Shown here: positions 11,674 through 47,349 of the stretch, in pieces | Layout: every line of letters begins with the position of its first letter | How positions within the stretch are numbered: position 1 is the stretch's first letter | Source of the DNA: Candidatus Pacearchaeota archaeon | GTDB lineage: Archaea; Nanobdellota; Nanobdellia; Pacearchaeales; GW2011-AR1 | Direction of reading: 5' to 3' | NCBI GenBank assembly: GCA_018304165.1 | Contig: JAGVWS010000011.1 | Coordinates: 1-49,233, forward strand | DNA: 49,233 nt | The notes under the pieces: generated by a model | The model's input: the letters and a program-made list of their open reading frames with translations, nothing else | Told to the model about the DNA's origin: nothing | Databases searched by the model: none | Made by a program: the position numbers and the translations under genes

Positions 11674-11799
11674 TTATCTTTTCTTCTTCTTTCTTCCGCC
11701 GCGCGCCATTCTAGCCTCGCAGACGTTACCTTTACCATCAACATAGTAGAGGTATCCCTTCTTTCTCTTGACAGCGCCTCTAAGAATTATTTGTCCCAT
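11674..11799 (-). CDS. 41-aa highly basic protein, putative nucleic-acid binding (not in ORF track)
   Basis: MGQIILRGAVKRKKGYLYYVDGKGNVCEARMARGGRKKKKR; GGAGG RBS 6 nt upstream. Confidence 0.85.
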   Translation of the reverse strand: MGQIILRGAVKRKKGYLYYVDGKGNVCEARMARGGRKKKKR

Positions 11800-11849
11800 T
11801 TCGAACCTCCTTTTATGATTATTTCTTTTTATTATAACGACGTGTATAT

Positions 11850-12224: not shown

Positions 12225-12235
12225 GAAGATTGCAA

Positions 12236-12625
12236 CTATTTTTGAGTTTTTAACCTTTTATATTCTTGAAAGAACTGGTTTATATTTCTGTGATTTACAA
12301 AATCATGGTGCTTGAATCCTCCGCCGAACGACTTTGGGATGTGCAGAAGCTCATGGATTATTGTTTTTGTTTTATCATCTTCGGCAAGTTTGTCAAAGCG
12401 TTCAGAAATAAACTCTAGGACATAAAATCCTCTTCTTTCGCGCCCCAGAGCCTTCTGCATAATTTTTCCAAGGGCATGGCAGCGGGCTACTGTGCCTCTG
12501 GAAGAACTGCCATGGCTTCTCATAACTGAAATATTATCCATCTGTATGTGAAACATTCCCATAGTGTCCCTTAAATCTCTGACTATCTCAAGAATGTCCG
12601 GAGCGTCTTCGTACTTAATGCCCAT
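12236..12625 (-). CDS. Putative metallopeptidase (HExxH)
   Basis: RSHGS...ARC, FDKL, IIHELLHIP..FGGG..HH. Confidence 0.8.
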   Translation of the reverse strand: MGIKYEDAPDILEIVRDLRDTMGMFHIQMDNISVMRSHGSSSRGTVARCHALGKIMQKALGRERRGFYVLEFISERFDKLAEDDKTKTIIHELLHIPKSFGGGFKHHDFVNHRNINQFFQEYKRLKTQK

Positions 12626-16025: not shown

Positions 16026-16086
16026 TTTCTATTAAGTATTTTAGACATTAGTTTATCTAATTTAAAGATATAAAAATGTTTCTAAT

Positions 16087-24009: not shown

Positions 24010-24660
24010 CTATTTCTTCTTCTCAACAGCCTTTCTGACTTTGGACGGCGCTTGAGCCATCATCATCCATGAATCAATGCTCTTGCCGTTGTAAATTGCG
24101 TTAAGCATTTGAGTAACATAGCCAAAACTTGAAGGGTCTGCCTGAAGCCCGGAAACAAGGGCTTGCCTTTCTTCAGCCGTCGCTGTTCTGTAATAATCTA
24201 CTTCTTCGGCGAGAATATCGATAAGCTGCATCACGCCATCGGCTCTTTCTTCAGGCGTTGGAGAATAAACTCTTGCCTTAATAACTAAATGACCTTTCTC
24301 TTCAAGAGTTGCTTCTATAATCCTTGCAGCCCTTCTCAAATCTCTAACGGCTTCTTCTAATCCTGTTAAAGATTCGCCCATTACAGCCCTTCTCAAATCC
24401 TCATTGCGCTGATTGTCGGGATGATTCTCAATATTGAAGCATTCTAATCCGGTAAGCTCATAAAGAATTTTTTTGTTACGCCAGGAAACTTTGCTCAAAT
24501 CTTTAATTCTTCCGGTACGATAATCATAAAAAGTTCCGCTATGCAGTCCGATTTTTTCAATATCGGAAACTTTCTTCCCGCTCTTAGAGAACCACTCGTT
24601 TAATTTTTGGTTCCAGGATTTAGAATACTCCGGAGTGCAATGAACTAAAGAGTCAGTCAT
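24010..24660 (-). CDS. Hypothetical protein with N-terminal HTH(XRE)-like region and coiled coil
   Basis: KKVSDIEKIGLHSGTFYDYRTGRI; ATGA-coupled. Confidence 0.65.
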   Translation of the reverse strand: MTDSLVHCTPEYSKSWNQKLNEWFSKSGKKVSDIEKIGLHSGTFYDYRTGRIKDLSKVSWRNKKILYELTGLECFNIENHPDNQRNEDLRRAVMGESLTGLEEAVRDLRRAARIIEATLEEKGHLVIKARVYSPTPEERADGVMQLIDILAEEVDYYRTATAEERQALVSGLQADPSSFGYVTQMLNAIYNGKSIDSWMMMAQAPSKVRKAVEKKK

Positions 24661-25691
24661 AATATTCTCCCTTCAGAATGTTTATCCTTATCTGGATTGT
24701 CAGATTTCTTATCGGCTTGCAGCGTTCCTGTTATTTCATCAAGAGCTCTGCGAAGCTGGTTCTGGTAATGCTTCTCAAAATCAGAAATTTTAGATTCATC
24801 AACATCACGGAATCTTGCCTTAATTGTTTCTAAATTCCATCCTCTATACCTGGCCTGGCAATATTGGTATTGAGTAAGCCTTGGAAGAGGCCTCTTTCTT
24901 TCCTTATCTTCTGATTGTTTTTCTGATGTTTCATCAGCTCCGACGCTTCTCAGTTTCAATACATATTTTTCATAATTCAGGCGGAATCCTAAGAATCTGT
25001 GATTCTTGTAATCAATAGAAAACTTCTGCTTTATTTCTTCATCAGACTTTCCGCTCTCTCTAAGCGAGCAATAAAGGCTATAATTCAAACCAGGAGTGAC
25101 GAATTTTTTTCTTGGTTTTGATTCTTCTTGGCTTGGTTGAGAAATTTGTGCTGGTTTTGAACTTGATATTGACTTTACTGATTCAATTGATTCACGTGCC
25201 TTTCTTCTAGAATAAGCCCTGGAATAAGGACCTATCTGCCTGGGCTTCAAGGGTTTGAACATAGCTTTTGCCTCTTCATGAGTCTTGCCGGAATTCCTAG
25301 CCCCACAATAAGCCTCATAAGTAAGAACTGGACGATTATCTGGCAAGTGAACAATGGCTTTCTCGTGTTCCGGCGTTTCACTTATTGAAGGAGTTGCAAC
25401 AGCCGCCTCAACGCCTGACGAACCTGACGAACTTGATGACGGCGCGGGAATTTCCTCAACAACTTCCTCCAAATCACCAAACTTAATTCCAATGGTTATC
25501 CTGCTATTGATTGTCTTTTCAAAAGCATCAATATCTGCAAGTTTTCCAGAATCATAAGCTTCATTAGCAACGAAGGATAAATAATTTTCAAGTTTTGCTA
25601 AGCCAACGACTCTGGCTCTCGCTAGCAACATTCCAACATAGTACTTCTTTCTCTCATCAAGAATCTCACGCAAAGATTTATCGGAGGTCAT
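24657..25691 (-). CDS. Hypothetical protein with three internal repeats (start likely MTSDK at 25691)
   Basis: Three P.L.Y/Q..YC..R..G....I/AK..F units separated by low-complexity linkers. Confidence 0.75.
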   Translation of the reverse strand: MTSDKSLREILDERKKYYVGMLLARARVVGLAKLENYLSFVANEAYDSGKLADIDAFEKTINSRITIGIKFGDLEEVVEEIPAPSSSSSGSSGVEAAVATPSISETPEHEKAIVHLPDNRPVLTYEAYCGARNSGKTHEEAKAMFKPLKPRQIGPYSRAYSRRKARESIESVKSISSSKPAQISQPSQEESKPRKKFVTPGLNYSLYCSLRESGKSDEEIKQKFSIDYKNHRFLGFRLNYEKYVLKLRSVGADETSEKQSEDKERKRPLPRLTQYQYCQARYRGWNLETIKARFRDVDESKISDFEKHYQNQLRRALDEITGTLQADKKSDNPDKDKHSEGRIL

Positions 25692-26188
25692 TCTAAGCCC
25701 CCCAGAGAGCATAATTCATCCAGATGCTTAAAACTCTCACGAAAACCAGCTATATCTATAGGTTTGTAGTTATGCTCCTCGGCGTATTTTACTAAGTCCC
25801 TGAAGAAATCACGACGGAAAGGAAGATATCTGCGTTTTAATTCTTCCGGAACGGCTCTTAATTCATAATCAAGAGCTCCTAAGCAAGGGCATATTCTTCC
25901 TTGTAAAGATAATTCTAATTGTTCATGAAGAATGGGGTAGGGCCTGAATTCTTCCGGAGTTTCTTCTGATACACCATAAACGCCATTGATTATATCCTTG
26001 GAATCATCTTCAACGGCGCACTGCCAAACAAAATTAGGAAGTTCCGGACAAATGCTCTTAGGCATAACAAAGTAAGCCAGCCTTATCTCTACAGAATCAG
26101 ACTTTACAAATTTTTCTTCTTTAGGAAATCCCTGACTCTCAGCCCATTCACGAGCCAATTCAAAATCTCTCTCGCTGAATGTTTTCAT
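25688..26188 (-). CDS. Hypothetical protein with HExxE motif
   Basis: GVSEETPEEFRPYPILHEQLE; ATGA-coupled. Confidence 0.7.
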   Translation of the reverse strand: MKTFSERDFELAREWAESQGFPKEEKFVKSDSVEIRLAYFVMPKSICPELPNFVWQCAVEDDSKDIINGVYGVSEETPEEFRPYPILHEQLELSLQGRICPCLGALDYELRAVPEELKRRYLPFRRDFFRDLVKYAEEHNYKPIDIAGFRESFKHLDELCSLGGLE

Positions 26189-27804
26189 TTTATCCCCAGC
26201 CTGTTTAATGTGTGAAAGCGGAGAAATTCTGCTTTCTCTAAAGCTTCCCTGACGGAGTCAGAAGTAGTGCCAACTAATTTTCCCTGCCTTTCATTATTGC
26301 GAATCTCATAACTGGCAGCTTCTTTAGCAACTAACTCTACAATGTATCTCAGGAAAGAAGTCTTGTCAGAAGCATTCTGCCTGTTCTTATAATCAGAGTG
26401 AGCAGAATTGAGATAAATAATGGGAGTGCCTAACTGGTCTTCTAATTTGCTTCTAAGATGAGCGTCGCTAATTTGGAAATCAATTGGCTGGGGCTGGCCG
26501 AAAGGAACTGGGCCTCTTGGAACAACTCTCTCCTCAAAACCAGACTCGTCCTCAACAAAAGTTCCGGGGCCAGGATGCTTTCCGGATGGAGTTTTTGGAC
26601 CTCTTCTTCCCCCACCGCCTCCTGATTCAACGGGCTGAGCGCCAATGACTCTGACTAATTCTCCTTCGCCAGACCTTGTTAGGGAGCCTCCCAAACCAAG
26701 CTTCCTTAATTCTTTGAAAGCGTCCTGCATCGCTTCATAAGCCTTTTTAATCTCAATAGTGCTGCTTCTTTGACTGCCTTTCTTTGATAGTTCCGCAACT
26801 ATAGGCCTTAATTTATCCTCAATCTCCTTGATAGTTTCAAACCAGGCTCTATAAGTGCGGCTGTTCTTATCAATGGCATCTCTTCCAAGAACAAGCCTGT
26901 TGAAACGGTCATTGATAAAACCGCTTACTTTACCGGAATTCCAGACAAGATTGCTTTCTAATTCTGACAATTGAGTTAAGGAATCATAAACCAAAACATC
27001 TTTAGAATAAACAGCGACGGCATCGCCAATCGAGTCAGGATTCAGGAATAATACAACTTCCAAACCTCCGGGAGTTTCTTCGTTCTTAATTGGGACTCTC
27101 AAAACTTCGTCCATGAAAGGAGCAGAAGAACCAATTAAGTAGTTAGCTGCCTCAACAGGAGAAACTAATCTTCTCCTGCCATCATCCCTTCCAACGCTCA
27201 TATTAACAATGCCGCTGCGAAGAGCGGGAGCGTATAATTTTTGAAGCCACTTCTTCAAAGCAGGAGTAGTCAAAACTTTCTCCATGACGTGGTCGCCAAT
27301 CTGGTCAACGATTACTCTTGTTCCGTGCTTGAAAACGCCGCCAAAGCATTGCTCAACATCAGAAGCACTAAGCCTGTCAGTCCTGAACTTAACGCCATTC
27401 TTGCCTAATTCCCATCTAACATAAGAATAACCGGCATTGATAGGACCATCATAAGCTCTGGAGATAACATGCATCACTTCTCCAAGAGAGCCAAAGCCGA
27501 GAATTCCCATGCCCTTCTCCCCGCGCTGGTCAGTTCTTTCCCTCTTATCAGAATAACCAACACTAAGGGGAAGACTGAAGAGTTTGTTCTCAGTCATTCC
27601 TCTCCCATTATCAGAAATAATTAATCTTCTCTGAGGGGGAGCAGAAATAACAGAGATATCCTCTATCTGTCCGGAAACTCTGGCATCAAGGCTGTTAGTA
27701 ACGAATTCCCTGATAGAATTCTTCTCATTATAAGCCCTTGAAAGTTCAACAATGGCATAACCCTGCCCCTGACCATGAAACTGAACCATGCCTTCGGAAG
27801 TCAT
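26185..27804 (-). CDS. MORC-like GHKL ATPase without recognisable nuclease domain
   Basis: REFVTNSLDA, ISDNGRGM, GEKGMG, GTRV boxes; S5-like domain; Gly-rich linker; C-terminal IYLNSAHSDY domain. Confidence 0.85.
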   Translation of the reverse strand: MTSEGMVQFHGQGQGYAIVELSRAYNEKNSIREFVTNSLDARVSGQIEDISVISAPPQRRLIISDNGRGMTENKLFSLPLSVGYSDKRERTDQRGEKGMGILGFGSLGEVMHVISRAYDGPINAGYSYVRWELGKNGVKFRTDRLSASDVEQCFGGVFKHGTRVIVDQIGDHVMEKVLTTPALKKWLQKLYAPALRSGIVNMSVGRDDGRRRLVSPVEAANYLIGSSAPFMDEVLRVPIKNEETPGGLEVVLFLNPDSIGDAVAVYSKDVLVYDSLTQLSELESNLVWNSGKVSGFINDRFNRLVLGRDAIDKNSRTYRAWFETIKEIEDKLRPIVAELSKKGSQRSSTIEIKKAYEAMQDAFKELRKLGLGGSLTRSGEGELVRVIGAQPVESGGGGGRRGPKTPSGKHPGPGTFVEDESGFEERVVPRGPVPFGQPQPIDFQISDAHLRSKLEDQLGTPIIYLNSAHSDYKNRQNASDKTSFLRYIVELVAKEAASYEIRNNERQGKLVGTTSDSVREALEKAEFLRFHTLNRLGIK

Positions 27805-28400
27805 AACAAAACCCTCCCTGATTTAGGCAATGATAGAGCAACTTCTAGGTGAGGAGTTGCAAGAATTGGATTTGGGAAGTCTTTGTTTAATTCATCCAAA
27901 GAACTTCTAATTGCTAAAGGATTCCTTGCAGCAATAGCTTCTAAGCAATCGTCATCAGTTAAAAGTCTTCTAACAGTATCAACAGATTTAGGAATATCAA
28001 AGGCATAACCTGCTTCTTCAGCAGTTCTGCCAGTATAATCACTAGGACCTCTGTAAAAAATGCTGAATCGTGCAACTAACAAACCATCATTCATAGCGTC
28101 CATAACAATGTCCTCCATTTCAGAAACAGCGCCAGCAATGTACAAGTCAGGAATGAAATTACGATCGCCGGAGAGTTCAGAGTTCATACCTCTAGCAGTA
28201 AGAGCGACAACTCTTCCATTAGGAGAAACAAGCCTTCTAGTACTACTCAAAGTTACTTGTTCCTGACCAAAAGCCAGTGACTGAATAATGGCTTTTGTTG
28301 GACCACATGCCATAACTACATCTTCAAAAGAGTAAGTCAAATAAGGAGTCTTGAGATCAACGACCAAGAATGGTGCTTGATGAACAGATTGAGAAGTCAT
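27801..28400 (-). CDS. Hypothetical protein
   Basis: 199 aa ORF, ATGA-coupled on both sides. Confidence 0.75.
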   Translation of the reverse strand: MTSQSVHQAPFLVVDLKTPYLTYSFEDVVMACGPTKAIIQSLAFGQEQVTLSSTRRLVSPNGRVVALTARGMNSELSGDRNFIPDLYIAGAVSEMEDIVMDAMNDGLLVARFSIFYRGPSDYTGRTAEEAGYAFDIPKSVDTVRRLLTDDDCLEAIAARNPLAIRSSLDELNKDFPNPILATPHLEVALSLPKSGRVLL

Positions 28401-28732
28401 CTTCTTTCAGCCTCCTTTCTTATCCTTTCTATCTTCTCTCTTATTGGCCTAATTCTCTCATAAAAATCCTCAACTTTATCAAAATCTTCTTTGTTTCTTA
28501 TTTCATCATAATGTTTTTCGCACTCTTCAAGTGTTAAGTCAACATCAACACCATCGCTATAACTTGGTCCAGCTTGAGACAAAGTAATATCTTTCTGAGA
28601 GTATAACAAAAGATATTTTGTCTTTCCAAGATCTAAGATATCACTCACCCAGCTATGTATCTCTAATCTCTCTTCTAATTGTCCTTTGTTAAACTCGCTT
28701 GGCTCAAGGATTTTTGATTTTAAGATTTTCAT
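28397..28732 (-). CDS. Hypothetical protein
   Basis: 111 aa ORF, ATGA-coupled, GGAGG RBS. Confidence 0.7.
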   Translation of the reverse strand: MKILKSKILEPSEFNKGQLEERLEIHSWVSDILDLGKTKYLLLYSQKDITLSQAGPSYSDGVDVDLTLEECEKHYDEIRNKEDFDKVEDFYERIRPIREKIERIRKEAERR

Positions 28733-29532
28733 TCTAACTTTCCTCCCAATTCTTTCACTAATTTTTCCAGTCTCTCGGCAACTCTTGAGCGATGAGCAAA
28801 GTTATCCTTTGACATGGCGGCGATTCTTCTGAGAAATTCTTTCTCGCTAAGCCCTGCATACTTTCCTGTAGATGGAGAATCATCGCTCGTTCTCTGGCGC
28901 TGCTCATAAAATCTTCCCATGTTATCCATTAAGAAGTAACTTCCGGCATCAACACTCATTTCAATAACGTCAGGAAAAGTGTTCCATCTAAGAACAATGC
29001 ATTTATCATGATTGTCATGCCTTGCAGCTCTGTGAATCCTTGATTCTGTAGTGTTGGGAAAAATACCTCCGACTAATTCAATAATCTTTGGAATGGCAGA
29101 CCATATTCTTCTAAGACTGGCGTCATCTCCAACAACGGCCTTGATTTCGGCCTCTGCTCTCTTTCTTTCAATGCCCCGCTCATATTCAGTTCTGATGTTA
29201 TAAAAAGAATCAGAGTTAGTTATGCGAGCGAATAATGCCTGCGCCTCTTCAAGAGTCAGACCCTCTCTAAGTCCTAAGTAAGACTTAATGCTTTCAATAG
29301 TATCTGACGGGGCGAAGATTCTCTCTCCCTCATCATTCCTTCTGGTCAGGTATTCTCTTGCAGTATACACTAAATGGCAGCTGTTTTCTCTTGGCTTGTC
29401 TTCAGCATCTTTCCATGCCCTTATTTCAAGGCTTTCAAGAAGCCCAAGCTGCCTTGAAGCGACGAGCGCTGTCCTCTCATCGTCTTTCTCCTGCTGGTAT
29501 GTCTTAGTTGTTTCGGCGTTTGTTTCAGCCAT
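28729..29532 (-). CDS. Hypothetical protein, first gene of the MORC operon
   Basis: 267 aa ORF divergent from the AbrB-PhoU gene. Confidence 0.75.
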   Translation of the reverse strand: MAETNAETTKTYQQEKDDERTALVASRQLGLLESLEIRAWKDAEDKPRENSCHLVYTAREYLTRRNDEGERIFAPSDTIESIKSYLGLREGLTLEEAQALFARITNSDSFYNIRTEYERGIERKRAEAEIKAVVGDDASLRRIWSAIPKIIELVGGIFPNTTESRIHRAARHDNHDKCIVLRWNTFPDVIEMSVDAGSYFLMDNMGRFYEQRQRTSDDSPSTGKYAGLSEKEFLRRIAAMSKDNFAHRSRVAERLEKLVKELGGKLE

Positions 29533-29690: not shown

Positions 29691-30608
29691 ATGGAAGAAC
29701 GAAAACTGATAAAGCAAGGCGGAGGCGGACTTACAATCTACCTTCCTAAGAAGTGGCTTGACAGGAAAGGGCTGAAGGAAGGAGATAAGGTAAGCGTCAT
29801 TGAAGACGAAGGTTCATTGATTATTGAAGGGAAAGTTAACAAAAAGAACGAAATCATAATTGGCATTAATGAGTCTAATATTAATGACTTAAGACACCTG
29901 CTCACTCACGCTTACAGGAGAGGTTTTAGTAGAATAATCATCAATCATGAAAGAACTGAAAGAATCATCAAAGAAGTAAAGAAAGTTGTAAGTAACGTTC
30001 TGCTAGGTTTTGAATTAACAAAAATTGAAGGAAATGAACTACTGATAGAAAACATCTCCGAGCCAAGCGAAGAAAAATATGAAGTGATGATGCAGAAAGT
30101 TTTTCTGGTAATAAGTGAAACAATGCAATTAATGTCTAACGATTTTTCCAAGGGAAAGTTTGATGATGCTAATGAGATGAAAGAACTTCGAGACCAGTCT
30201 GACAAATTCATAATCTTCTGCAAGAGGCTGTTAAGCAAGAACAAGCATGAAAGAAACCTGCTCTTTGAATGGGAATTTTTGACATTCATGATGGATATCC
30301 AGCACACATGCTACTACCTATACCACTATTGCTATGATAACAAAATAAAAGGCACTAAAGAAATGATAGCATTTAGCAAAGAATTAGAATCATACTTTTC
30401 TCACCTAAAAACAGCCTATAACAAAAAAGACGCAGCAACAGTCCACAAGATCAATGAATTAAAGAAGAAATACCACTTTGGTGACATCACTAAAATGATT
30501 GAGAAATCAAGAGGCAAAGAAAGCAGTGTTTACGCTTATTTTAGAGAAGTATTCAGAAGCATTCAATTATCAACAAGCCCGATAATGTCCATGAGTTTTA
30601 AGTACTAA
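29691..30608 (+). CDS. AbrB/SpoVT-PhoU phosphate-uptake-regulator-like protein
   Basis: RKLIKQGGGGLTIYLPKKW...LKEGD; AYRRG; LLGFE; helical PhoU-like C-terminus. Confidence 0.85.
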   Translation: MEERKLIKQGGGGLTIYLPKKWLDRKGLKEGDKVSVIEDEGSLIIEGKVNKKNEIIIGINESNINDLRHLLTHAYRRGFSRIIINHERTERIIKEVKKVVSNVLLGFELTKIEGNELLIENISEPSEEKYEVMMQKVFLVISETMQLMSNDFSKGKFDDANEMKELRDQSDKFIIFCKRLLSKNKHERNLLFEWEFLTFMMDIQHTCYYLYHYCYDNKIKGTKEMIAFSKELESYFSHLKTAYNKKDAATVHKINELKKKYHFGDITKMIEKSRGKESSVYAYFREVFRSIQLSTSPIMSMSFKY

Positions 30609-30664
30609 AAAACACTTTATATAGCGTGCTTCAGAATTAAAAGATTTACAAACCGCATCAAATA

Positions 30665-30678
30665 GAAAGCTTTAAATA
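30665..30678 (+). promoter_or_regulatory. BRE+TATA promoter of MNT-HEPN module 1
   Basis: GAAAGC TTTAAATA. Confidence 0.6.
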
Positions 30679-30691
30679 TACTCTTACTCAT

Positions 30692-31264
30692 ATGAATAAT
30701 ATGTTACTCAATAATAAAAAGGTATTAATCTTGGAACAGTTTGTACTAGATTATGATACTAAGAAGTATGGAAGAGATATTGCGAAGAGACTGAAACTAA
30801 ACCAGAAGACTGTTGCTAATATGCTGAACGAACTGGAAAGAGAAGATATCCTGAAATATTCACGGGAAGGAAAGAACAAATATTATTTTCTGAACAAGCT
30901 TAATCCGCACATCAGAGAAATTATTAAATTGGTTGAAGTTGGCAGAAAAATCAGGTTTTTAGAAAAGAATTCTAAATTAAAGGACCTTTTTAATAAACTA
31001 GAAGAAAGAGCCAGCGGGATGGTTCTTATTTTTGGCAGTTATGCAAGCGGGAAGAGCAATGATAAGTCAGACCTTGATGTTTTTGTCATTGGAAGCATAA
31101 AGGATATTAAAGATTTAGAAGATCTCTACAATATTAAAATAAATATTGTAAAAAGCATCAAGAACAAATTTGACAAGAATGAAATTTTTATTAATGAAAT
31201 AATTAAAAATCATATTATTCTCAAAGGAATAGAGGAGTATATCGGTTTAGCATGGCAAGCATAA
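30692..31264 (+). CDS. wHTH-MNT (minimal nucleotidyltransferase) antitoxin-like
   Basis: N-terminal HTH; FGSYASG....SDLDV. Confidence 0.88.
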   Translation: MNNMLLNNKKVLILEQFVLDYDTKKYGRDIAKRLKLNQKTVANMLNELEREDILKYSREGKNKYYFLNKLNPHIREIIKLVEVGRKIRFLEKNSKLKDLFNKLEERASGMVLIFGSYASGKSNDKSDLDVFVIGSIKDIKDLEDLYNIKINIVKSIKNKFDKNEIFINEIIKNHIILKGIEEYIGLAWQA

Positions 31265-31734
31265 AATGGTGCTGCGCACAAAAAGAAGGGATTAGGTTAA
31301 TTGAGCCCAGCGATAACCTGGCGTCAGGTTATATGAAGATGGCTGAGGATGCAATAGGCACAATGAACAGAGAGAGAAATTACAATCCTGCCTTCGCAGT
31401 ATCTGCATGTTATTACTCAATGTATTATTCACTTTATTCAATAATGATGAAAATAGGAATCAAATGTGAAATTCATTCATGCAGCCTGGAATTTATGAGG
31501 AGATTTTTGAACAAATTTTATTCTTCAGAATATATTAAAATTATAGAGAGGGCATTTGGATGCAGAGGGATAGCGCAGTATTATGTTGATAAAGTTGTCA
31601 GAAGAGAAGATTCCGATTTTATAATGCTTAAAGCCCCATTTTTCTTATCAAAGTCCAAAGAGATTCTTTCCAAAATAAACCAGAAAGATATTCAGGAAGT
31701 AAGAAAAGGATTATCTTTATTTCTGCCGGAATAA
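31252..31734 (+). CDS. HEPN domain protein
   Basis: YYSMYY, KCEIHSC, R..AQYY. Confidence 0.85.
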   Translation: MASIKWCCAQKEGIRLIEPSDNLASGYMKMAEDAIGTMNRERNYNPAFAVSACYYSMYYSLYSIMMKIGIKCEIHSCSLEFMRRFLNKFYSSEYIKIIERAFGCRGIAQYYVDKVVRREDSDFIMLKAPFFLSKSKEILSKINQKDIQEVRKGLSLFLPE

Positions 31735-31764
31735 TCAACAAGCCCAATAATGTCCATGAGTTTT
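31734..31764 (+). repeat. Duplicated 3' end of the AbrB-PhoU gene (direct repeat of 30569-30599)
   Basis: 30/31 identity; the single difference is synonymous CCG/CCA. Confidence 0.9.
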
Positions 31765-31981
31765 GGATATTATAGTATCTCCGATGGATGATATTATGGC
31801 TTACAGAAATATAGCTATGAGAGATACTTCTATTATCCTTAATATGATTAGCAAGTTTAATGAGCAGGTTAGCAACGACAAATGGTTAGGTGCTTATCAA
31901 AAGTTAATTTAAGAGGGTTAGAGCTAATGGTGGTTGATTCTGAAGTTATTGCTAAATTGTGGCTGGAGCGAAGATATTCTA

Positions 31982-33628
31982 TTAACGATTCTTCATCCTC
32001 TCTTCTCTGCGTTCTTTTAAAATTCTGTCAGCAGTGCCTTCGCCCTGCTCTTCATCAAGCTTCTTCTTGGCTTCATAAAGAAGCTTTAGTGTTTCCCATC
32101 TTTCGCGAGCATGGTCATAAGGGTCGTGAAAGGCAGAATTTTGAGGGAACCTTTGCCAATTATCAATAGCAGGATTGGCGTATTTACCTACTGCCTCCCA
32201 TGCCCTTGAATTCTCCATGTCTACAAGTATTGGAGCAATATCGTCATATTTTGTGCTTCCATTAGCCATCATAATTGCTTCATAAGTAGCCCTTGAATCA
32301 AAAAAGGCGGCTGTTGCTGTTCTTGGATCCTCTAACAAATCAAGCCAGCCCTGAAATTCTCTGGTCTGATAGTAATTAATATCGTTAAGATTCAAAGTGT
32401 TAATATTTCTATCTTTTCCACCAGTAAGAAATATACTAACTACTCCGCCTTTCTTTTCAAACTCTACATCATTCTTACTGGATTCTAATTTTTCTTCTAA
32501 AGCTACTTTTGTAGAGTTCAAGTCAACAAATTTGTTCATTATGGGAATTGCACCTAGGGTTAAAGCCGCTCCAATGCCTGCAACAACACACAATCTCTTA
32601 ATCCTGGATATGGGTTTTGAGCGCTCATATTTCTTAAGAGCTTTATTGAACTCATTCTGCAATACTTCGCCGTTTTCAGGCCTGTTTTTTGGATTATAAG
32701 AAAGGCAAGAACGAAGAAATGGTTTGAGAGCTTTAGGGATATCAGCCAAAGAATCTTCAACTAGTCCCTCATATTCATGTTGTCCCATATTCTGAATTGC
32801 TAAAACCGGATCAATAGTTTCCTCTAACTTTTTTTGCGTTGGATATTTGCCTGTTAATAACCTTACTCCGAGAGCGCCTACTGACCAGACATCTGATTGA
32901 GTAGTTGGATGAGAATCAGTTCTAAATTGTTCAGGAGCTCTGATTGCAATAAAACCAATGTTATCCCTCGGGCTCCTGCTCCATTCTTCTGGACTGACAG
33001 TTGTGGCAGTGCCTGTATCTGCAATAACGATTCTTCTGTTAACAAGACCGGCAGGCTGATAATCCATCAGATTAGCAGGATTCAAATCACCATGAACCCT
33101 GTCAAAATCTGCGTGCAATTCTTTAACGCCATGAACAATATCGCCGAGATACTCCATTTGTAAATCTCTAAATAATTTGGGATTAGAATCCGAGCCCCAG
33201 TTCATCATTTCTTCTAGAGTAGCTCTACACTGGGGCATCCAGATAAATGGCTTTTTATCATCATCCTCAAAAACAACTGATGGGAGAACATAACTAGCTG
33301 GCTGAAAACGAACTTCTCTGGTAATAACTGCGTCATCATTAATCACTCTATGTTCTCTCTGCTTCTGGGAAATTTTTGAATGAGAAAGAAGCTTGATAGC
33401 ACCATATTGCCCTGTTCTTTGATCGCGAGCAGCATAAACAACGCCATTACTCCCCTGGCCTAACTTCCTGCCGACAATGAATCGCTGTGAATTAATAACT
33501 CTCGGAGTTATCTCGCCAAAATCTCTGATTGAGCCGGCCCTGATTAATTCTTCATGAGTCATACCTTGATAAGCAGTATCATCAATAAGCTGAAAATTTT
33601 CACCGCCTGCCGATTCGTCCTTAGTCAT
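31982..33628 (-). CDS. Membrane-anchored Hanks-type Ser/Thr protein kinase
   Basis: LGQGSNGVVY, AIK, HGDLNPAN, DTG, APE, SDVWSVG; one TM, then a C-terminal domain. Confidence 0.9.
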   Translation of the reverse strand: MTKDESAGGENFQLIDDTAYQGMTHEELIRAGSIRDFGEITPRVINSQRFIVGRKLGQGSNGVVYAARDQRTGQYGAIKLLSHSKISQKQREHRVINDDAVITREVRFQPASYVLPSVVFEDDDKKPFIWMPQCRATLEEMMNWGSDSNPKLFRDLQMEYLGDIVHGVKELHADFDRVHGDLNPANLMDYQPAGLVNRRIVIADTGTATTVSPEEWSRSPRDNIGFIAIRAPEQFRTDSHPTTQSDVWSVGALGVRLLTGKYPTQKKLEETIDPVLAIQNMGQHEYEGLVEDSLADIPKALKPFLRSCLSYNPKNRPENGEVLQNEFNKALKKYERSKPISRIKRLCVVAGIGAALTLGAIPIMNKFVDLNSTKVALEEKLESSKNDVEFEKKGGVVSIFLTGGKDRNINTLNLNDINYYQTREFQGWLDLLEDPRTATAAFFDSRATYEAIMMANGSTKYDDIAPILVDMENSRAWEAVGKYANPAIDNWQRFPQNSAFHDPYDHARERWETLKLLYEAKKKLDEEQGEGTADRILKERREERMKNR

Positions 33629-41289: not shown

Positions 41290-41846
41290 TCATAATCCAT
41301 ACTCCTCAAGCCTCTTAGCTATAACCTTTGATGTTAATCGCTTTTTATCAAGTATTATTGGATAAATGTCTTTCATAATCCTATCATTTTGAGCAAAATC
41401 TGCAACTATTGACATGTCAAGAATCTTGGACTCCGATTCTTGAGCATGCTCAAAATGTCAAGAACATTAGTTCTTGAGCACATTCAAAATGTCAAGAATT
41501 TACAATTCTTGAGCACAGTCAAGGATTAACATCCTTGATGATTAACATTTTTGATGACTAAGACAAGTTTTTGACACTCCAACTCTCAAGCAATCAGGAT
41601 TGGCTTGAGCAATCCATCTCGCAGAGATTATAGCATCAGCCTTCCATGAATCACTATTCAAATCAAAATCAACTACGGCTAATTGCTAAACATTGCTCAC
41701 GAGCTTCGCTCTCAACTCTTTTTCAGACGAAACAAGGTCTGCTCTCAATGAATAATCCTTTAAAGCTTCTCTAAAAACTTTAGATAATTCCTGCTGATGC
41801 CGAGGCTCGTCTTCAACAATAATAACAGAAAGAGAGAGCGGGTCAT
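41290..41846 (-). pseudogene. Single-domain response regulator (CheY-like receiver) pseudogene
   Basis: SVIIVEDE...QLAVVDFDL...VGVS[insertion]IVADF...ILDKK; 2-nt frameshift near the start, TAG at 41686-88, 162-bp hairpin insertion. Confidence 0.8.
41409..41576. mobile_element. Family-A tandem hairpin array with 6-bp TTGACA duplication
   Basis: 3-4 units of ATGTCAAGA-loop-TCTTGAGCA; removal restores GTG TCA ATA GTT (V-S-I-V). Confidence 0.85.
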
Positions 41847-43096
41847 TTTGATTTTAAAAGCCACTTCCAAACAGGTATTATCTTTATTTTTTTTCCATCT
41901 ATTTTTATTTCTTCTTCCTGATCTAATGTTAAGATGAGGCCTTCAGAAAGGCCATATTTCTGCATGGAATCCAACAATCCTTCAATTTCTCTATTTTTAG
42001 TGGCAGGATTGTTAAGGTTTGTCGATACTTGTATAGCTTGAGTTATTTTCAAGCCCCTTTTTATTACAAAATCGCATTCTCTTTTTTCAAGATGATAATA
42101 GACATCTAAACCATGCTTAACTAACTCTATAAAAACTAAATTTTCCAGCCTTTTTCCTTCATTTTCAGTAAAATTAAAAGCCACCGTTCTTAAGAAACTA
42201 TTATCCATGACATAAAATTTTGATGATGATACCTTCTGTTTCTTTATTGAGTAATCGAACTTAGTTATTGTTGATGCAATAAACACGTTTTTTAAGTATT
42301 CAATATATTTCTTTATCATGCTTAAACTCTTTATACTTGATACTTGTTTCAAAGTAGCATAAGAATATGTTCTGCTGACATTAGAGAAAAGATAAAGGAT
42401 TAAATCATTCAGCTCTTTTACTTTTCTTATGTTATATCTCTTTATTATATCTTTGTTTATTATATCTTCAAAGTATTGTTTGGACAGGCTTAGATCGTCA
42501 TTTTTAATAATTAAAGGAAATCCGCCGGTCTTAAAGTATTCATTAAATGCCTTAAAGACTTCTACTCTCTCGCTCGTGGTCTTGTATTCCGGATTTATTT
42601 TTTTTAGTTTTAAAAATTCTCTGAAAGAGAAGGGCAACAGCTTTATTATTTTATTTCTGCCAGTCAAAAAAGTTGATATCTCAGAACTCAACAGATTTGA
42701 ATTTGAACCAGTAACGAACACCTTGATTTTTTTTGCATAAAGATTATTTACCCATCTTTCCCACGATTTAGCATCCTGTATTTCATCAAGAAAATAAACG
42801 ACTTCCTCTTTCCCATATTTTTCCGCTACTATCTCCTCAATATGAGAAAAATTTTCAATATTAAAATCTGAGAATTTTATATCATCAAAACTCAAGTAAA
42901 ATAACTTCTGTTTAATATTTTTAGATATTATTTTTAGGAGTGAGCTTTTCCCGCATCTTCTTATACCCGTTATAATAACAATCTCATTGCCTTTTAGAAA
43001 TTCATCTATAGAAATTTCCCGATCAATAAGATTGTCCATCTTTCTAAAAAGTTCTTGTTGGTCATTAATTACTTCTCTTAGCTTGTCTTTTTCCAT
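41843..43096 (-). CDS. AAA+ superfamily ATPase (AAA_14/DUF4143 type)
   Basis: GIRRCGKS, FLDEIQ, VTGSNS, GGFP, ENLVF, ECDF...IQV. Confidence 0.9.
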   Translation of the reverse strand: MEKDKLREVINDQQELFRKMDNLIDREISIDEFLKGNEIVIITGIRRCGKSSLLKIISKNIKQKLFYLSFDDIKFSDFNIENFSHIEEIVAEKYGKEEVVYFLDEIQDAKSWERWVNNLYAKKIKVFVTGSNSNLLSSEISTFLTGRNKIIKLLPFSFREFLKLKKINPEYKTTSERVEVFKAFNEYFKTGGFPLIIKNDDLSLSKQYFEDIINKDIIKRYNIRKVKELNDLILYLFSNVSRTYSYATLKQVSSIKSLSMIKKYIEYLKNVFIASTITKFDYSIKKQKVSSSKFYVMDNSFLRTVAFNFTENEGKRLENLVFIELVKHGLDVYYHLEKRECDFVIKRGLKITQAIQVSTNLNNPATKNREIEGLLDSMQKYGLSEGLILTLDQEEEIKIDGKKIKIIPVWKWLLKSK

Positions 43097-43228: not shown

Positions 43229-43279
43229 TTAATGCTTTAGGTCATCTTCAACAATAATGATGGAGAGGGAGCGGGTCAT
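43229..43279 (-). repeat. Orphan 5' end of the response-regulator gene
   Basis: MTRSLSIIIVEDDLKH-stop; direct repeat of 41810-41846. Confidence 0.85.
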
Positions 43280-43641
43280 CTTCTTTTCCTTTTTGATAAA
43301 ATTGGTGTATAACATGTGTCTTCTCTCAAGGTCCTTGGATTTCCGCTATCTATATATTTCCTAAAGGTCATACTAAAATATCTATCCTCCGCCTCACCAT
43401 GACCAGCATAAGTTACTCTAGTTACTCTTCCTGGACCGTATGGATGACGGCCCATGAAGCATCTTACTTCAAACCTTGGGAACCTTCCGTTACTATCACA
43501 CCTAGACAAAATTTTAACGAGACAATTATTAGCTGAATCTTCATATTCTTCACTCTCTAATCTTCCGGACTTATAGGTTATTGATTGTCTATGAAAAACG
43601 GTTGAAGGACATTTAACTTGGAGGAGTGTTTTTGAAGTCAT
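43276..43641 (-). CDS. Hypothetical protein
   Basis: 121 aa, ATGA-coupled. Confidence 0.65.
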   Translation of the reverse strand: MTSKTLLQVKCPSTVFHRQSITYKSGRLESEEYEDSANNCLVKILSRCDSNGRFPRFEVRCFMGRHPYGPGRVTRVTYAGHGEAEDRYFSMTFRKYIDSGNPRTLREDTCYTPILSKRKRR

Positions 43642-43925
43642 CTTCTCTTTCCTTCAAATTTTTTTCTATACTCTTCTCTCAACCCGGAAAAATCTTCTCC
43701 GCTGTTTATCCTATCAAAATAATCATAGCATTCTTCCAAAGTCGTCCGTCTTCTGCAGCCTTTATCAAGAGCTACCCCAAATGCTACACCCTCGGCAGCT
43801 ATATAGTGCCATAATCCATAATTGGCTCTTCCGCGAAGTATATTCCAGCCAATGGTTCTCGTTATAAATAACTCTTCTAAATAACCAATATTTTTATGCC
43901 TAAGAACACCATGTATAGAAGTCAT
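43638..43925 (-). CDS. Hypothetical protein
   Basis: 95 aa, RBS, ATGA-coupled downstream. Confidence 0.65.
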   Translation of the reverse strand: MTSIHGVLRHKNIGYLEELFITRTIGWNILRGRANYGLWHYIAAEGVAFGVALDKGCRRRTTLEECYDYFDRINSGEDFSGLREEYRKKFEGKRR

Positions 43926-43937: not shown

Positions 43938-45209
43938 TTAAAAATTATAACTTACCGCTAGAGCACCAGAAATTGTGCCCCTAGCATCTTCAGGTTTAGT
44001 ATAGCGAATGCCAAGATGAACAGCCCAGGACTCATTACCATTCTTATCCTTGCCACCGCTAAGCAGAGTGGTATGATATTCTAGGTTACTGACGTCGCTG
44101 TTAGAACTCTGGTTATCAAGATAAGAAGTCCTTCCAATCTGGAATTTGTTATGGGTGAGGAAGTTATGACTAATATCTCCAAGGCCGACAGCTATGTCAG
44201 TCTTTAATGTTCTGTCGCTTATCCCTGGATTAGAATACTTAATATCAAAGCTGAACTTTCCGGCTTCTCCGCTATTTGAAGCTGCAGCTCCGAAGAAATC
44301 AAACTTGAATGGATCACTGCCAATGCCAAAAGGGAATGTAGCATCACCGTCGCCAGCAAGGAAGCCAGTAATGGAATTGAATAATGTGTCCTGGACACCA
44401 TTAACAAAAGCACCACCGGGAGTTTTATCACCAAATCTAATCCTAGCTTCAAGTCCATTATTTAAACCCTCACCATTCTCAAAAATTTTAGCATGAGCCC
44501 AAACCTTATAACCCTCGAGAGCACCACTACCCCACTTATTATGAGCAGAGATATTGAAAGTATCTAAATCATTAATTCTATGACCACCAACAGCAATGCC
44601 TGAATTCTCGCTTGTGTTCCAGATAAGAGCATAACCAAAATTGCCCTCACTATCAAGAGTGAATTGGGGCCTGACATTATCCTTGTCCTTTAAAACATCA
44701 GAAAATTTCAGTCCAATAGCGCCAGCAATACGATCATCAAGAGGCTTGGCTAAGTCCTGAACTTCAAGATTCCAGAAGTCAAGCCACTTGCTATCTTTAT
44801 AAGATTTTTCAATGAGAGCGCGGCTGTTTGTATCACCAGAACTCTTAATCTCTTCAGTACCAGCATTAAATCTGAAGCCTGCTAAATCATTGTAAATTTC
44901 ACCAAGAGCCAAATCAGCACCAGTTATTCTGGAGTCGCCTTCGTCCCTGAAAGCAAGCTTTCCAAAGCCATTGCTGACAATAACATGAGATTGAAGATTA
45001 CCATGACCATCAGAATAGCCCCTGGTAAGAATATTAATTGGGCCGCCAGCTCTTTCAACGGCAGGAGCCTGCTCAATAGCAGCCTCTAAATCAGACTGCT
45101 CCTTGATAATTTCGTCGTCATCAGCGAGAGCAAGAGCACCAACGGCGTAAGGCATGACAGCAGCACTAAGAGCGGCAGCGTTAGCGATTTTTTTGAATTT
45201 GTTTGTCAT
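43938..45209 (-). CDS. Secreted beta-strand-rich, porin-like protein (start likely MTNK at 45209)
   Basis: Sec signal ending ALA; many amphipathic strands; C-terminus ISGALAVSYNF. Confidence 0.6.
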   Translation of the reverse strand: MTNKFKKIANAAALSAAVMPYAVGALALADDDEIIKEQSDLEAAIEQAPAVERAGGPINILTRGYSDGHGNLQSHVIVSNGFGKLAFRDEGDSRITGADLALGEIYNDLAGFRFNAGTEEIKSSGDTNSRALIEKSYKDSKWLDFWNLEVQDLAKPLDDRIAGAIGLKFSDVLKDKDNVRPQFTLDSEGNFGYALIWNTSENSGIAVGGHRINDLDTFNISAHNKWGSGALEGYKVWAHAKIFENGEGLNNGLEARIRFGDKTPGGAFVNGVQDTLFNSITGFLAGDGDATFPFGIGSDPFKFDFFGAAASNSGEAGKFSFDIKYSNPGISDRTLKTDIAVGLGDISHNFLTHNKFQIGRTSYLDNQSSNSDVSNLEYHTTLLSGGKDKNGNESWAVHLGIRYTKPEDARGTISGALAVSYNF

Positions 45210-45336
45210 TTTGTTTGTCTTCCTCATCATCTCATGGCTTGTTGTAACCACTTCATGATAACAGGATATCAGAAAAATCACAATATAAACATTTCCATTA
45301 AACTATATAAATTAGTATAAATCTATATATATTTTA

Positions 45337-45350
45337 GAAAAGTTTAAATA
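45337..45350 (+). promoter_or_regulatory. BRE+TATA promoter of AbrB-PhoU gene 2
   Basis: GAAAAG TTTAAATA, 21 nt before the ATG. Confidence 0.7.
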
Positions 45351-45371: not shown

Positions 45372-46259
45372 ATGAAGAGAAAATTAGTTCAGCAGGGCGC
45401 CAGCACTTTAATGATTAGCCTGCCTTCAAAATGGGCCAAGCAGTTTAATTTAAAGAAGGGCGATGAAGTTGACATTAATGAAAAGGATAAACTGCTTATT
45501 ATAGCAAAAGAGAGCACCAGCGGAGATAAAAAAACAGCTAAAATTGATGTTTCATCATGGCATCCGCTTATTAATCGCTTGTTATTATCTTATTTCCTCA
45601 AAGGATATGATGAAGTTGAGATTCATTATTCCAATCATGAGCAGGTGAAAAGGTTCCAAAAGGATATCCTAACAACCGAATTATTGGGGTGGGAAGTTAT
45701 CAAGCAGAGTCCCGGAGTATTGGTTGTCAAGGACTTGACCGCTGGAGAAATGGGAAATACTGATGACGTTTTAAAGAGGCTGTTCTTCATGCTTGATAAT
45801 ATGTGCGGAGAACTTATTGAAAGCCTTGAGAAGAAACATGATGCAGGGGTTATTGAAAGCGACAAAGTAATTAATAGATTTGTTTACTACTGCTTAAGGC
45901 TTTTGAACAAAAAAGGATATAAAGAATATGATAAAACTTCGCAGGTTTACAGCATAATAACACTTGTTGAAGAAACCGGCGACTTATTCAAGGACATTGC
46001 AAAGAAGAAGTTCAAAGCAATGAAGGATGACCTTGCTGCGCTTAAAGATATAAAAAACTCGTTCGCATTATTCAAAGAGGCATTCTTTAATTTCACCCGC
46101 GAGGTTGAGATAAAGCTCGCTCACAATTACGAAAAAATAAAAAAAGAAATTCATCCTAAGAGCGAGATTGACTCATACCTTCACGCTATAAATGGCAACA
46201 TAATAAGGATGAATAATGAGCTAATGATGATGAATGTTGGCTCTATTTCTGTTCATTAA
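45372..46259 (+). CDS. AbrB/SpoVT-PhoU phosphate-uptake-regulator-like protein (paralog 2)
   Basis: KRKLVQQG.STLMISLPSKW...LKKGDEV; KGYDE; LLGWEV; D..INRF..YCLR.LNK. Confidence 0.88.
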   Translation: MKRKLVQQGASTLMISLPSKWAKQFNLKKGDEVDINEKDKLLIIAKESTSGDKKTAKIDVSSWHPLINRLLLSYFLKGYDEVEIHYSNHEQVKRFQKDILTTELLGWEVIKQSPGVLVVKDLTAGEMGNTDDVLKRLFFMLDNMCGELIESLEKKHDAGVIESDKVINRFVYYCLRLLNKKGYKEYDKTSQVYSIITLVEETGDLFKDIAKKKFKAMKDDLAALKDIKNSFALFKEAFFNFTREVEIKLAHNYEKIKKEIHPKSEIDSYLHAINGNIIRMNNELMMMNVGSISVH

Positions 46260-46351: not shown

Positions 46352-46930
46352 ATGAAGAAATCAATTAAAGGCGTAAAAGTAGAAGAATTTGAGAGGGCTT
46401 ATAGGAAAACTTTGGCATGGTTCTTCGCCTTTCCAGAAAGAAAAACAGGACTTACAGAGCTTTCTAAACTAATCAAATCCTCAAAAACAGCTACTAAAGA
46501 AGCTGTAGAAACTCTGATTAACAATGAATTTATTAACAGAGAAATTGCAGGCAAGGCATGGATTCTATCAGCTAACGAAAGAAATAAGCACTTCCAAATC
46601 AAAAAAATTCCTTATCACTTGGATAAAATTTATGAATCGGGAGTCATAGAGGTTATTTATCAAATTATACCCCAGCCGAGAGCAATAGTTTTATTTGGAA
46701 GCTATAGGCATGGAGTTGATACTGAGGAAAGTGACTTGGACATCGCTGTGGAAGTCTTGGGAAATGAAGAGTTCCGGATAAGGAAGATTGTGGCTATTGA
46801 ACAATTGGGTTACAGAAAGAACATCCCTGTTAATATTCATATCTTTTCCAGGAATAAAATCGATATAAATTTATTTTCAAACATTGCCAACGGGATAGTG
46901 CTTGATGGATTCTTGGAGGTCAGGCCATGA
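46352..46930 (+). CDS. wHTH-MNT nucleotidyltransferase
   Basis: N-terminal HTH; LFGSYRHG.D.EESDLDIA; NIANGIVL.G. Confidence 0.88.
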   Translation: MKKSIKGVKVEEFERAYRKTLAWFFAFPERKTGLTELSKLIKSSKTATKEAVETLINNEFINREIAGKAWILSANERNKHFQIKKIPYHLDKIYESGVIEVIYQIIPQPRAIVLFGSYRHGVDTEESDLDIAVEVLGNEEFRIRKIVAIEQLGYRKNIPVNIHIFSRNKIDINLFSNIANGIVLDGFLEVRP

Positions 46931-47349
46931 GAACTAAATTTCCTGATAAGAAAAGGGCGTTGAGTGTTATCGCTGCTTCAGAAAAAGAAATGAAATACAC
47001 ACTTAATCTGCCAGTCAGTGAAGAGTCTGCATTTAATATCATAAGAAATATTTATGAATGCTTCAGAATGCTCGGAGACGCTCTATTAATATCCAGAGGC
47101 TTTGCTTCTGAAGACCACGCAGAGCAGGTAACAGAACTTCAATCAATACCTGTTAAAACTGATAGGCCTGTTAAGCTGATTGATTCGCTTAGAAAAATAC
47201 GCCATAACATAAATTATTATGGCTACATTCCATCAATAGCTGAAGCTGAAGATGCAATCTCAATAACTAAAGCATGCTATTACCAGTTATTAGAATCTAT
47301 TAAGAAAGAAATAAAAATGAAGGTGATTAGGAAATTTTCGCACCAATAA
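46927..47349 (+). CDS. HEPN-like protein
   Basis: YECFR....A....G....H; LRKIRHNINYYG. Confidence 0.8.
   Translation: MRTKFPDKKRALSVIAASEKEMKYTLNLPVSEESAFNIIRNIYECFRMLGDALLISRGFASEDHAEQVTELQSIPVKTDRPVKLIDSLRKIRHNINYYGYIPSIAEAEDAISITKACYYQLLESIKKEIKMKVIRKFSHQ

Follow-up and report, generated by a model that had tools for sequence, protein, structure and literature searches.

Why does an archaeon encode a protein with the marks of a bacterial outer-membrane porin, and in which membrane would such a protein reside? By textbook account, membrane beta-barrels mark out diderm bacteria, mitochondria and plastids, where Omp85 proteins insert them, and DPANN archaea lack most biosynthesis and are thought to depend on hosts. 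The question is raised by a 49,233-nucleotide stretch of a Candidatus Pacearchaeota genome (contig JAGVWS010000011.1; the whole stretch is referred to here as the window), in which a leftwards-transcribed gene (43938..45209) codes for a 423-residue protein, P0001, that a preliminary description made from the letters alone had read as an outer-membrane-type beta-barrel. On balance we consider it probable that P0001 is a Sec-exported, monomeric porin or substrate channel of roughly 20 predicted strands that acts in a lipid layer outside the cytoplasmic membrane, the favoured layer being the membrane of a partner cell. The gene stands beside a conserved control cassette of a protein kinase gene, an AbrB-type regulator gene and a 68-bp intergenic element, and the same cassette drives other barrel-type cargo in related genera. 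New here are the family of predicted 20-strand barrels, the 68-bp element shared across cargo types, and a layout of 14 strands, an insert and six strands that recurs in two families.

An exported protein with 20 predicted strands

The open reading frame (ORF) of the barrel gene extends to an opening GTG at 45281 (43938..45281, leftwards), and the start is taken as the ATG at 45209, codon M25 of that frame; the alternatives are the GTG and two in-frame ATGs (M18 and M19). The signal peptide is unchanged with a start at M18, M19 or M25, the two earlier ATGs merely extending the basic n-region. The predicted signal peptide (residues 1–29; 45123..45209, leftwards) is read from the sequence as MTNKFKK-IANAAALSAAVMPYAVGALALA followed by DDDE, with a K-rich n-region, an Ala-rich h-region and an AxA-type cleavage site between ALA and DDD. 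The h-region is the hydrophobicity peak of the protein (19-residue Kyte-Doolittle maximum of 1.78 at residue 11), and the layout of n-region, h-region and AxA site is kept in all seven full-length members of the family described below, which agrees with the cleavable-looking signal peptide of the preliminary description and points to Sec-type export. Mature P0001 is acidic (pI 5.0), lacks Cys, and is rich in Gly, Ala, Asp, Ser and Asn.

A phmmer search of 1.84 billion representative proteins (E ≤ 1e-3) returned nine proteins, seven of which form a family that we call A1 (six full-length sequences and one 121-residue fragment). The remaining two, P0010 and P0011, are long repeat proteins matched over short stretches only, and were not taken as full-length relatives. 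Word-indexed protein and profile searches added only P0003, for a total of seven full-length A1 sequences, which are 40–55% identical to P0001 and share 41 invariant columns, F423 among them. None of the relatives in the 1.84 billion representatives is bacterial. P0001 has no match in Pfam or NCBIfam at E ≤ 1, no porin family is matched in Pfam by any of the seven members at E ≤ 10, and the A1 profile finds only chance-level rows (E above 0.2) among the sequences of the PDB.

The fold was predicted with AlphaFold2 from the seven-sequence alignment, and strands were assigned by DSSP on the model (mean predicted local distance difference test score, pLDDT, 69.7; predicted template modelling score, pTM, 0.66; pLDDT is between 62 and 70 across the five models). 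Residues 59–422 are modelled as 20 strands in strict up-down order, with pLDDT of 70–90 in the strand blocks and below 50 in residues 1–54, the signal peptide and linker. The predicted layout, leftwards along the DNA, is an N-terminal linker of low model confidence with two short predicted helices and a conserved SDLExAI motif (residues 30–58; 45036..45122), strands b1–b14 (residues 59–260; 44430..45035), a 58-residue insert (GGAF..GVQDTLFNS..GDGDATFPFGIG; 44256..44429), and strands b15–b20 (residues 319–423; 43941..44255), which end with the closing strand GALAVSYNF. The insert is modelled at pLDDT below 50 for residues 266–281 and 283–298.

Two structure searches that are independent of each other place this model among transmembrane barrels. 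Foldseek against the PDB gave 118 matches at E ≤ 1e-3, and among the matches listed all are bacterial outer-membrane barrels, with OprB at the top (5.3e-8) together with OccK7, OmpG, PelB, AlgE and autotransporter domains. In VIA-align, run against 48,161 representative chains, the best 50 rows are all transmembrane barrels, led by ChiP (Z 16.9, 268 residues aligned, root-mean-square deviation (rmsd) 4.2 Å) and the Occ channels (Z 16.0–16.7), followed by VDAC1 (Z 15.4, 247 of 283 residues aligned, rmsd 3.7 Å, the lowest of the list), Tom40 (Z 15.4), AlgE (Z 15.2) and maltoporin (Z 14.5); by the tool's own note, a best Z of only 7–8 is typical where a model has no clear match. Language-model features of P0001 lie nearest to clusters of spirochaete cell-surface proteins (0.92) and of OmpG porins (0.90), which we take as a lead only.

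Alternation of the strand residues gives an indirect, sequence-based measure of the lipid-facing belt that the preliminary description had asked for. Averaged over the A1 family, the hydrophobic face of the strands scores +1.18 and the other face −1.21, and this difference of 2.39 (against 1.31 ± 0.22 in column shuffles) was reached in none of 2000 shuffles. The preliminary description had counted more than 12 alternating amphipathic strands; the model has 20, and the stretches quoted there all fall on model strands (AGAIGLKFS on b8, GLEARIRFG on b14, KFSFDIKYS on b15, WAVHLGIRY on b19 and GALAVSYNF on b20). The even number of antiparallel amphipathic strands in a closed barrel that is typical of outer-membrane proteins (OMPs) is thus present in prediction.

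The C-terminal strand agrees as well. The beta-signal consensus is a C-terminal closing strand with a terminal aromatic residue; in P0001 the terminal residue is F423, with hydrophobic residues at positions −1, −3, −5 and −7. Of the aromatic-x-Phe ending that had been pointed out, the Phe is upheld by the family, F423 being invariant in all seven sequences, with P0004 carrying a K after the F. Since the model is an up-down sheet of 20 strands whose best 50 structural neighbours are transmembrane barrels, a soluble beta-sandwich or solenoid is not what the prediction delivers, and the outer-membrane-type reading of the fold stands at the level of a model.

The kinase, regulator and 68-bp element

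The barrel gene and a rightwards-transcribed regulator gene (45372..46259) diverge across 162 bp, within which lies a 68-bp AT-rich element (45283..45350) with TATA-like boxes and nested imperfect palindromes, e.g. TTAAACT/AGTTTAA and TATATAAATT/AATCTATATA. The element is 91% identical at two other loci, L002 and L004, where the barrel proteins are only about 40–46% identical, and it is also found next to related regulators with non-A1 cargo in other genera (96% identity over 50 nucleotides at L013, 89% at L015 and 84% at L012). The 68-bp element probably serves both divergent genes as a common promoter and operator. BLAST of the 68-mer against a sample of 251 genomes of the order (the order sample) gave matches at E ≤ 1e-3 in 44 genomes, most of them short AT-rich matches that were not counted; near-full-length copies (at least 60 nucleotides at 75–100% identity) are present in ten of the 251, the source genome included, and one of these comes from a different family within the order.

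The regulator combines an N-terminal, swapped-hairpin AbrB/SpoVT DNA-binding domain (PF04014, E 2.5e-10) with a helical domain whose similarity to PhoU is sub-threshold (PF01895, E 0.079; 13.8 bits where the cut-off is 23.5). We scanned 14 such regulators, 13 from cassette loci and the second paralog of the window: the AbrB/SpoVT domain is above cut-off in all 14, and PhoU appears below threshold in five (E ≤ 0.1; best 21.6 bits against 23.5), with no PhoU match listed for the other nine. With a profile built from the 13 cassette regulators, no structure in the PDB is matched at E below 0.03. What the preliminary description called a PhoU-like regulator is therefore present and divergent, as it had said, and is better described as an AbrB-domain protein.

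A membrane Ser/Thr protein kinase gene, recognised by its Pkinase matches and its synteny, is convergent with the regulator gene and is cut by the contig end (47617..49233, leftwards). It codes for a kinase domain, one transmembrane helix and an outer C-terminal domain of roughly 370 residues that matches no family. Kinase and regulator genes are direct neighbours at L002, L004 and several other loci, and the order of kinase, AbrB regulator and barrel is kept at L002 (same genus, 46% identity of the barrel protein) and L004 (38%). We propose that the AbrB regulator would switch expression of the barrel gene, probably downstream of the kinase.

In the window the interval between regulator and kinase (46352–47349) is occupied by a nucleotidyltransferase gene (Polbeta/NTP_transf_2) and an overlapping 140-residue ORF that matches no family. 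The source genome has two AbrB-type regulators, both in the window, and the second (29691–30608) faces an operon of non-secreted proteins. It is part of a second copy of the module (29691–33628) that consists of the AbrB regulator, a nucleotidyltransferase (30692–31264), a small partner ORF (31252–31734) and a leftwards-transcribed Ser/Thr kinase gene (31982–33628), and that lacks the 68-bp element. Divergent from this second regulator is a leftwards run of tightly packed or overlapping genes (24010–29532) that match no family, with the exception of a GHKL ATPase (HATPase_c_3, 26185–27804); the run could be an undescribed system, perhaps one of defence.

The weak PhoU similarity raises another explanation, foreshadowed when the preliminary description likened the arrangement to phosphate-regulated porins: P0001 might be a porin for phosphate starvation, comparable to PhoE or OprP, induced by a PhoU-like regulator when phosphate is scarce. 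The similarity in the C-terminal domain of five of the 14 regulators and an Asp- and Gly-rich conserved insert in the barrel are in keeping with it. However, every PhoU match is below the Pfam cut-off, the regulator profile leads to no solved structure, no pst or pho gene lies in the neighbourhood, a Ser/Thr kinase and not a Pho system is the signalling partner alongside, and no similarity to the PhoE or OprP families was detected. The analogy is weak because it draws on slight domain similarity alone, and we judge a phosphate porin highly improbable.

Other cargo genes and a second barrel family

At all ten cassette loci the AbrB regulator lies on one side and 1–3 ORFs with a hydrophobic N-terminal stretch, mostly after a basic region, lie on the other. 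The cargo proteins, named by genome, are of 394 residues in G161, 494 in G249, 394 in G144 (ending ASIKF), 189 and 268 in G032 (ending IYTDF and LGVSF), 240 in G077 (ending KFKVKF), 357 in G076 (ending FAGFKF) and more than 343 in G140, where the gene is cut by the contig end; in G231 (locus L048, G231:C3, 1304–3733) there are three in a row, of 218 (ending VRGTF), 358 and 232 residues (ending VGYKF). They fall into the A1 superfamily, a second family that we call A2, a third pair (the 268-residue protein of G032 and the 232-residue protein of G231), and singletons. The 358-residue protein of G231 and the 357-residue protein of G076 are distant A1 members that were found by their position, each being 22% identical. 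The element, regulator and kinase provide a handle by which cargo genes can be found by position instead of sequence.

Terminal Phe recurs among these proteins. It ends nine of 15 complete cargo proteins, compared with 31 of 640 ORFs of at least 150 residues in the source genome, a nominal binomial P of 6e-9 for a set that includes homologs, hence events that are not independent. Counted by cluster, it is present in five of six, A2 being the one that lacks it.

Family A2 has eight sequences, 25–35% identical to the first, with a long conserved insert (SSPWIVGR..GDMY..PERVPL). Its AlphaFold2 model (pLDDT 66.4, pTM 0.65) also has 20 predicted strands, arranged as 14, a long conserved insert of low confidence, and six, and its structural matches are headed by ChiP (Z 17.5), followed by the Occ channels, AlgE, maltoporin and VDAC. 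The A2 protein P0015 is only marginally over the cut-off of the Pfam Autotransporter beta-domain (26.1 against 26 bits), and has matches to OMP_b-brl and Porin_4 that are both sub-threshold. No profile similarity between A1 and A2 was found with hhalign (probability 0.7%), and despite the common layout no homology is therefore claimed. As a model, A2 is an independent replication of the barrel fold.

These comparisons bear on whether P0001 is a membrane protein at all. It might be a secreted or surface-layer beta-rich protein whose amphipathic hairpins AlphaFold2, with too much confidence, has drawn as a closed barrel, and the mean pLDDT values of only 69.7 and 66.4, the alignments of seven and eight sequences, and the weakly hydrophobic face of six of the 20 P0001 strands would all fit such a case. 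Against it are structural neighbours that are transmembrane barrels throughout the best 50 VIA-align rows and the listed Foldseek rows, with Z up to 16.9 where 7–8 is the typical best of models that match nothing clearly, and two families that give the same fold with no detectable sequence relation; the Pfam matches of P0015, the recurrence of terminal Phe, and OmpG porin clusters among the language-model neighbours point the same way. We regard a non-membrane protein as distinctly unlikely.

Distribution and archaeal origin

Among GTDB species representatives, the A1 profile finds two of 61 genomes, the source genome and its sole congener. Once G231 and G076 are added, the superfamily profile picks out six of the 251 order-sample genomes, every one of them from the same family, and A2 is present in four of the 251. 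Locus scans identified one locus in genomes and three in metagenomes, and the sequencing runs with a match are of groundwater and soil metagenome DNA, with no RNA run among those listed. No second barrel gene was found when A1, A2 and the other cargo were compared with all ORFs of the source genome, and a crude scan of that genome for signal-peptide proteins ending in Phe gave none that is convincing. This sparse spread of A1 and A2 fits an accessory trait and speaks against a core part of the envelope, though it does not discriminate between the candidate membranes.

Ribosomal proteins S28e, L7Ae and S10 are encoded in the window, alongside gyrase, Kae1 and IMP dehydrogenase, and S28e and L7Ae in particular bear out the archaeal origin of the contig. 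The assembly is of 867 kb in 42 contigs and 79% complete. Public homolog records are labelled Nanoarchaeota archaeon and derive from metagenome-assembled genomes (MAGs), and on L004, a 722-kb metagenome contig, genes for S27a, S24e and an Rpb7-type subunit stand no more than 2 kb from the homolog. The G+C content of the barrel gene region resembles that of the rest of the window.

A bacterial gene, whether on a mis-binned contig or recently transferred from a diderm bacterium, would explain a fold that is otherwise known only from bacteria and organelles, and a horizontally acquired gene was among the suggestions of the preliminary description. The taxonomic spread that it proposed to consult speaks for an archaeal family and not for a bacterial source, the A1 homologs being few and none bacterial; as regards recent acquisition the suggestion is not supported, since neither the 1.84 billion representatives nor Pfam, where no porin family is matched at E ≤ 10, holds a bacterial sequence relative, and synteny of the gene is kept across related archaeal chromosomes. 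Both the regulator and the intergenic element are moreover of archaeal type. With archaeal and eukaryal-type ribosomal proteins on the contig and beside the L004 homolog, Nanoarchaeota homologs and window-like G+C, mis-binning or recent bacterial transfer is very unlikely, to the verge of being negligible.

Loop topology and the absence of a detected insertase

Classical resident OMPs have short periplasmic turns on the face that bears the termini and long loops on the far face. The modelled topology of both families is the reverse. In P0001 every connection on the side away from the termini is tight, 2–9 residues each and 53 in total, whereas those on the termini face include connections of 10, 12, 9, 9 and 58 residues and add up to 116; in A2 the figures are 69 residues on the termini face and 38 on the far face. 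Strand parity puts the 58-residue insert that joins b14 to b15 on the face shared by the two termini. This insert is the best conserved stretch of A1, with invariant G265, G266, F268, D274, D289, T291, P293, F294, I296 and G297 and a dense conserved block, GG.F...D...D.T.PF.IG, in residues 265–297. It may gate or narrow the channel, as a constriction, a plug or a docking element.

The presence of BamA in the genome had been named as a point to check, and the search of ten cassette genomes (78–95% complete) for Omp85/BamA (PF01103) gave no match above cut-off in any of them. The sole PF01103 row has 10.2 bits and three in-frame stops, and the same search was over the cut-off in seven of 14 reference genomes used as a control. 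As the cassette genomes are incomplete MAGs, Omp85 is reported here as not found and not as absent.

We propose that P0001, once exported, would insert into a lipid bilayer beyond the cytoplasmic membrane, where it would form a diffusion channel, and that it may enter the membrane of a partner (host) cell from the outside at a contact site and so tap host metabolites. Insertion into a partner membrane is favoured because Omp85 was not found, because the hairpins opposite the termini, the only connections that would have to pass through the bilayer, are tight and the insert and termini lie together on one face, because the trait varies and is thinly spread, as host-interaction genes are, and because these organisms presumably depend on hosts. 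In a variant of this scheme the partner is a diderm bacterium, whose own beta-barrel assembly machinery (BAM) would read the conserved terminal Phe strand; the route into the partner membrane would then be by that BAM, and otherwise spontaneous from outside. The SLT lytic transglycosylase, the sole bacterial cell-wall hydrolase family tested, was found in none of five genomes, and the BAM variant therefore stays speculative. In its most general form, the proposal is that porin-type transmembrane barrels occur beyond Bacteria and organelles, and that a DPANN family makes several barely related or unrelated barrel families under one kinase/AbrB cassette, dispenses with Omp85, and places the barrels in a partner membrane as a feeding route; we regard this as plausible, a little short of probable.

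The main alternative location is an outer lipid layer of the archaeon itself. P0001 would then be the porin of an unseen DPANN outer membrane, inserted by a non-Omp85 route, and this has in its favour that the protein shows all the sequence hallmarks of a resident OMP (signal peptide, amphipathic strands, terminal Phe), that two or three barrel-type genes stand in a row in G231 and G032 as they do in diderm bacteria, and that a few archaea such as Ignicoccus have double membranes, as stated in PMC6349945. A core envelope component should, however, be widespread, and neither A1 nor A2 is; the source genome yielded only one such gene, Omp85 was above cut-off in none of the ten genomes, and it is the termini face that bears the long connections, contrary to the classical arrangement. 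We consider a diderm archaeon unlikely.

Several points weigh against a P0001 channel in a partner membrane. The fold is a prediction of middling confidence from shallow alignments (seven and eight sequences), its most conserved segment is modelled at pLDDT below 50, and in six of the 20 strands the hydrophobic face is weak (family mean Kyte-Doolittle below 0.7). The argument from loop sides needs the DSSP strand count to be exactly right, and the terminal-Phe count draws on homologs. The A1 superfamily and A2 are sparse in the order sample, the genomes searched for Omp85 are incomplete, and the transglycosylase result leaves nothing that indicates a bacterial partner. Finally, we know of no insertion route for a monomeric 20-strand barrel that does without Omp85.

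If true, native archaeal barrels under archaeal regulation and without Omp85 would mean a new insertion route, a new archaeal envelope, or a symbiont that plants pores in its host. Pores planted in a host would be a testable molecule for how DPANN archaea get metabolites and lipids from their partners, and an outer membrane of their own in these archaea would be just as new.

Neighbouring genes

The preliminary description placed the barrel gene at the head of an operon divergent from the regulator, and the gene spacing supports this. Gene 2 (43638..43925, leftwards; 95 residues, no signal peptide and no family) begins 12 nucleotides past the barrel gene stop and is preceded by GGGGGAAAG, and gene 3 (43276..43641, leftwards; 121 residues) overlaps gene 2 by 4 nucleotides (ATGA); the spacing and the overlap together indicate a three-gene operon. 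Gene 2 has no counterpart in the other loci compared. Gene 3 has a weak match to a downstream ORF of locus L005 (29% identity over 76 residues, E 5e-4 in a nine-sequence database), and apart from this pair the downstream small ORFs are not conserved between loci. Rfam identifies only one tRNA in the window, so these small ORFs are not an RNA gene of a known family.

Directly 3' of the operon is one of two paralogous, leftwards-transcribed ATPase genes with AAA_14 and DUF4143 domains (41843–43096; the other is at 7592–8839). Several coupled genes (43276–43925 and 26185–28400 in the window, and 7505–8035 at L002) start with MTS, overlapping or just after the preceding stop in the context ..GATGACTTC.., which may be a recurrent translational coupling signal.

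Elsewhere in the window, the leftwards-transcribed Kae1/TsaD ORF (8896–9630) covers only profile positions 70–264 of 264, its N-terminal part being missing from the ORF, which could be explained by a frameshift, by an alternative start or by splitting of the gene. An HNH endonuclease gene and an N4/N6 DNA methylase gene are convergent and are followed by a phage-type metallopeptidase ORF (10020–12625), which suggests a restriction-modification or mobile patch. Two leftwards-transcribed genes (14205–16902) code for a 606-residue right-handed beta-helix protein and a 271-residue protein with staphylococcal-nuclease and lamin-tail domains, both with hydrophobic N termini; the latter looks like an extracellular nucleic-acid scavenger.

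Comparison with known systems

The best structural neighbours of both families are ChiP and the OprD/Occ channels (Z 16.0–16.9 for A1 and 16.4–17.5 for A2, about 250–275 residues aligned). In common with them P0001 has a signal peptide, an aromatic residue at its end and, by prediction, a large barrel that is monomeric. These Gram-negative substrate-specific channels are 18-stranded, whereas 20 strands are predicted for P0001, which has no sequence similarity to them (no Pfam match at E ≤ 10, the OprD profile included). OprD/Occ channels have extracellular loops that fold inwards, and P0001 has a single long insert on its termini face. P0001 also differs in its host, an archaeon in which Omp85 was not found.

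VDAC and Tom40 (Z 15.4, with the lowest rmsd of the list for VDAC1) resemble P0001 in having short connections on both faces and a short helix before the first strand. They have 19 strands with parallel closure, compared with 20 predicted in P0001, which does not match the Porin_3 profile and has no sequence similarity to them. Mitochondrial barrels lack a signal peptide, and P0001 differs from them in its apparently cleavable Sec signal peptide.

Beta-pore-forming toxins enter a foreign membrane from the outside without Omp85, with only tight hairpin turns crossing it, and this is the mechanism favoured for P0001. They assemble their barrel from hairpins of many subunits, and have a soluble precursor and a large cap domain. 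P0001, in contrast, is predicted to be nearly all barrel, and a single chain.

Full-text searches of the published literature gave no description of porin-like barrels in DPANN archaea of this group. The nearest mention, in PMC12228718, is of a possible distant relative in Altiarchaeales of PopA, an outer-membrane protein of the bacterial predator Bdellovibrio that forms a pentameric porin-like superstructure. PopA, as described there, has in common with P0001 a porin-like barrel from a small cell that lives on other cells; it is a pentamer, whereas P0001 is predicted as a single 20-strand chain, and the two are likened by description and not by sequence.

The control cassette has its closest parallel in Bacillus subtilis, where a Hanks-type kinase acts on AbrB. 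Here too a membrane Ser/Thr kinase is paired with an AbrB-domain regulator, the archaeal genes for the two being neighbours, and phosphorylation of the archaeal regulator is putative. Different from B. subtilis is the fixed cassette in which the pair is found, with a conserved 68-bp element of its own and an exported, predicted barrel as its cargo.

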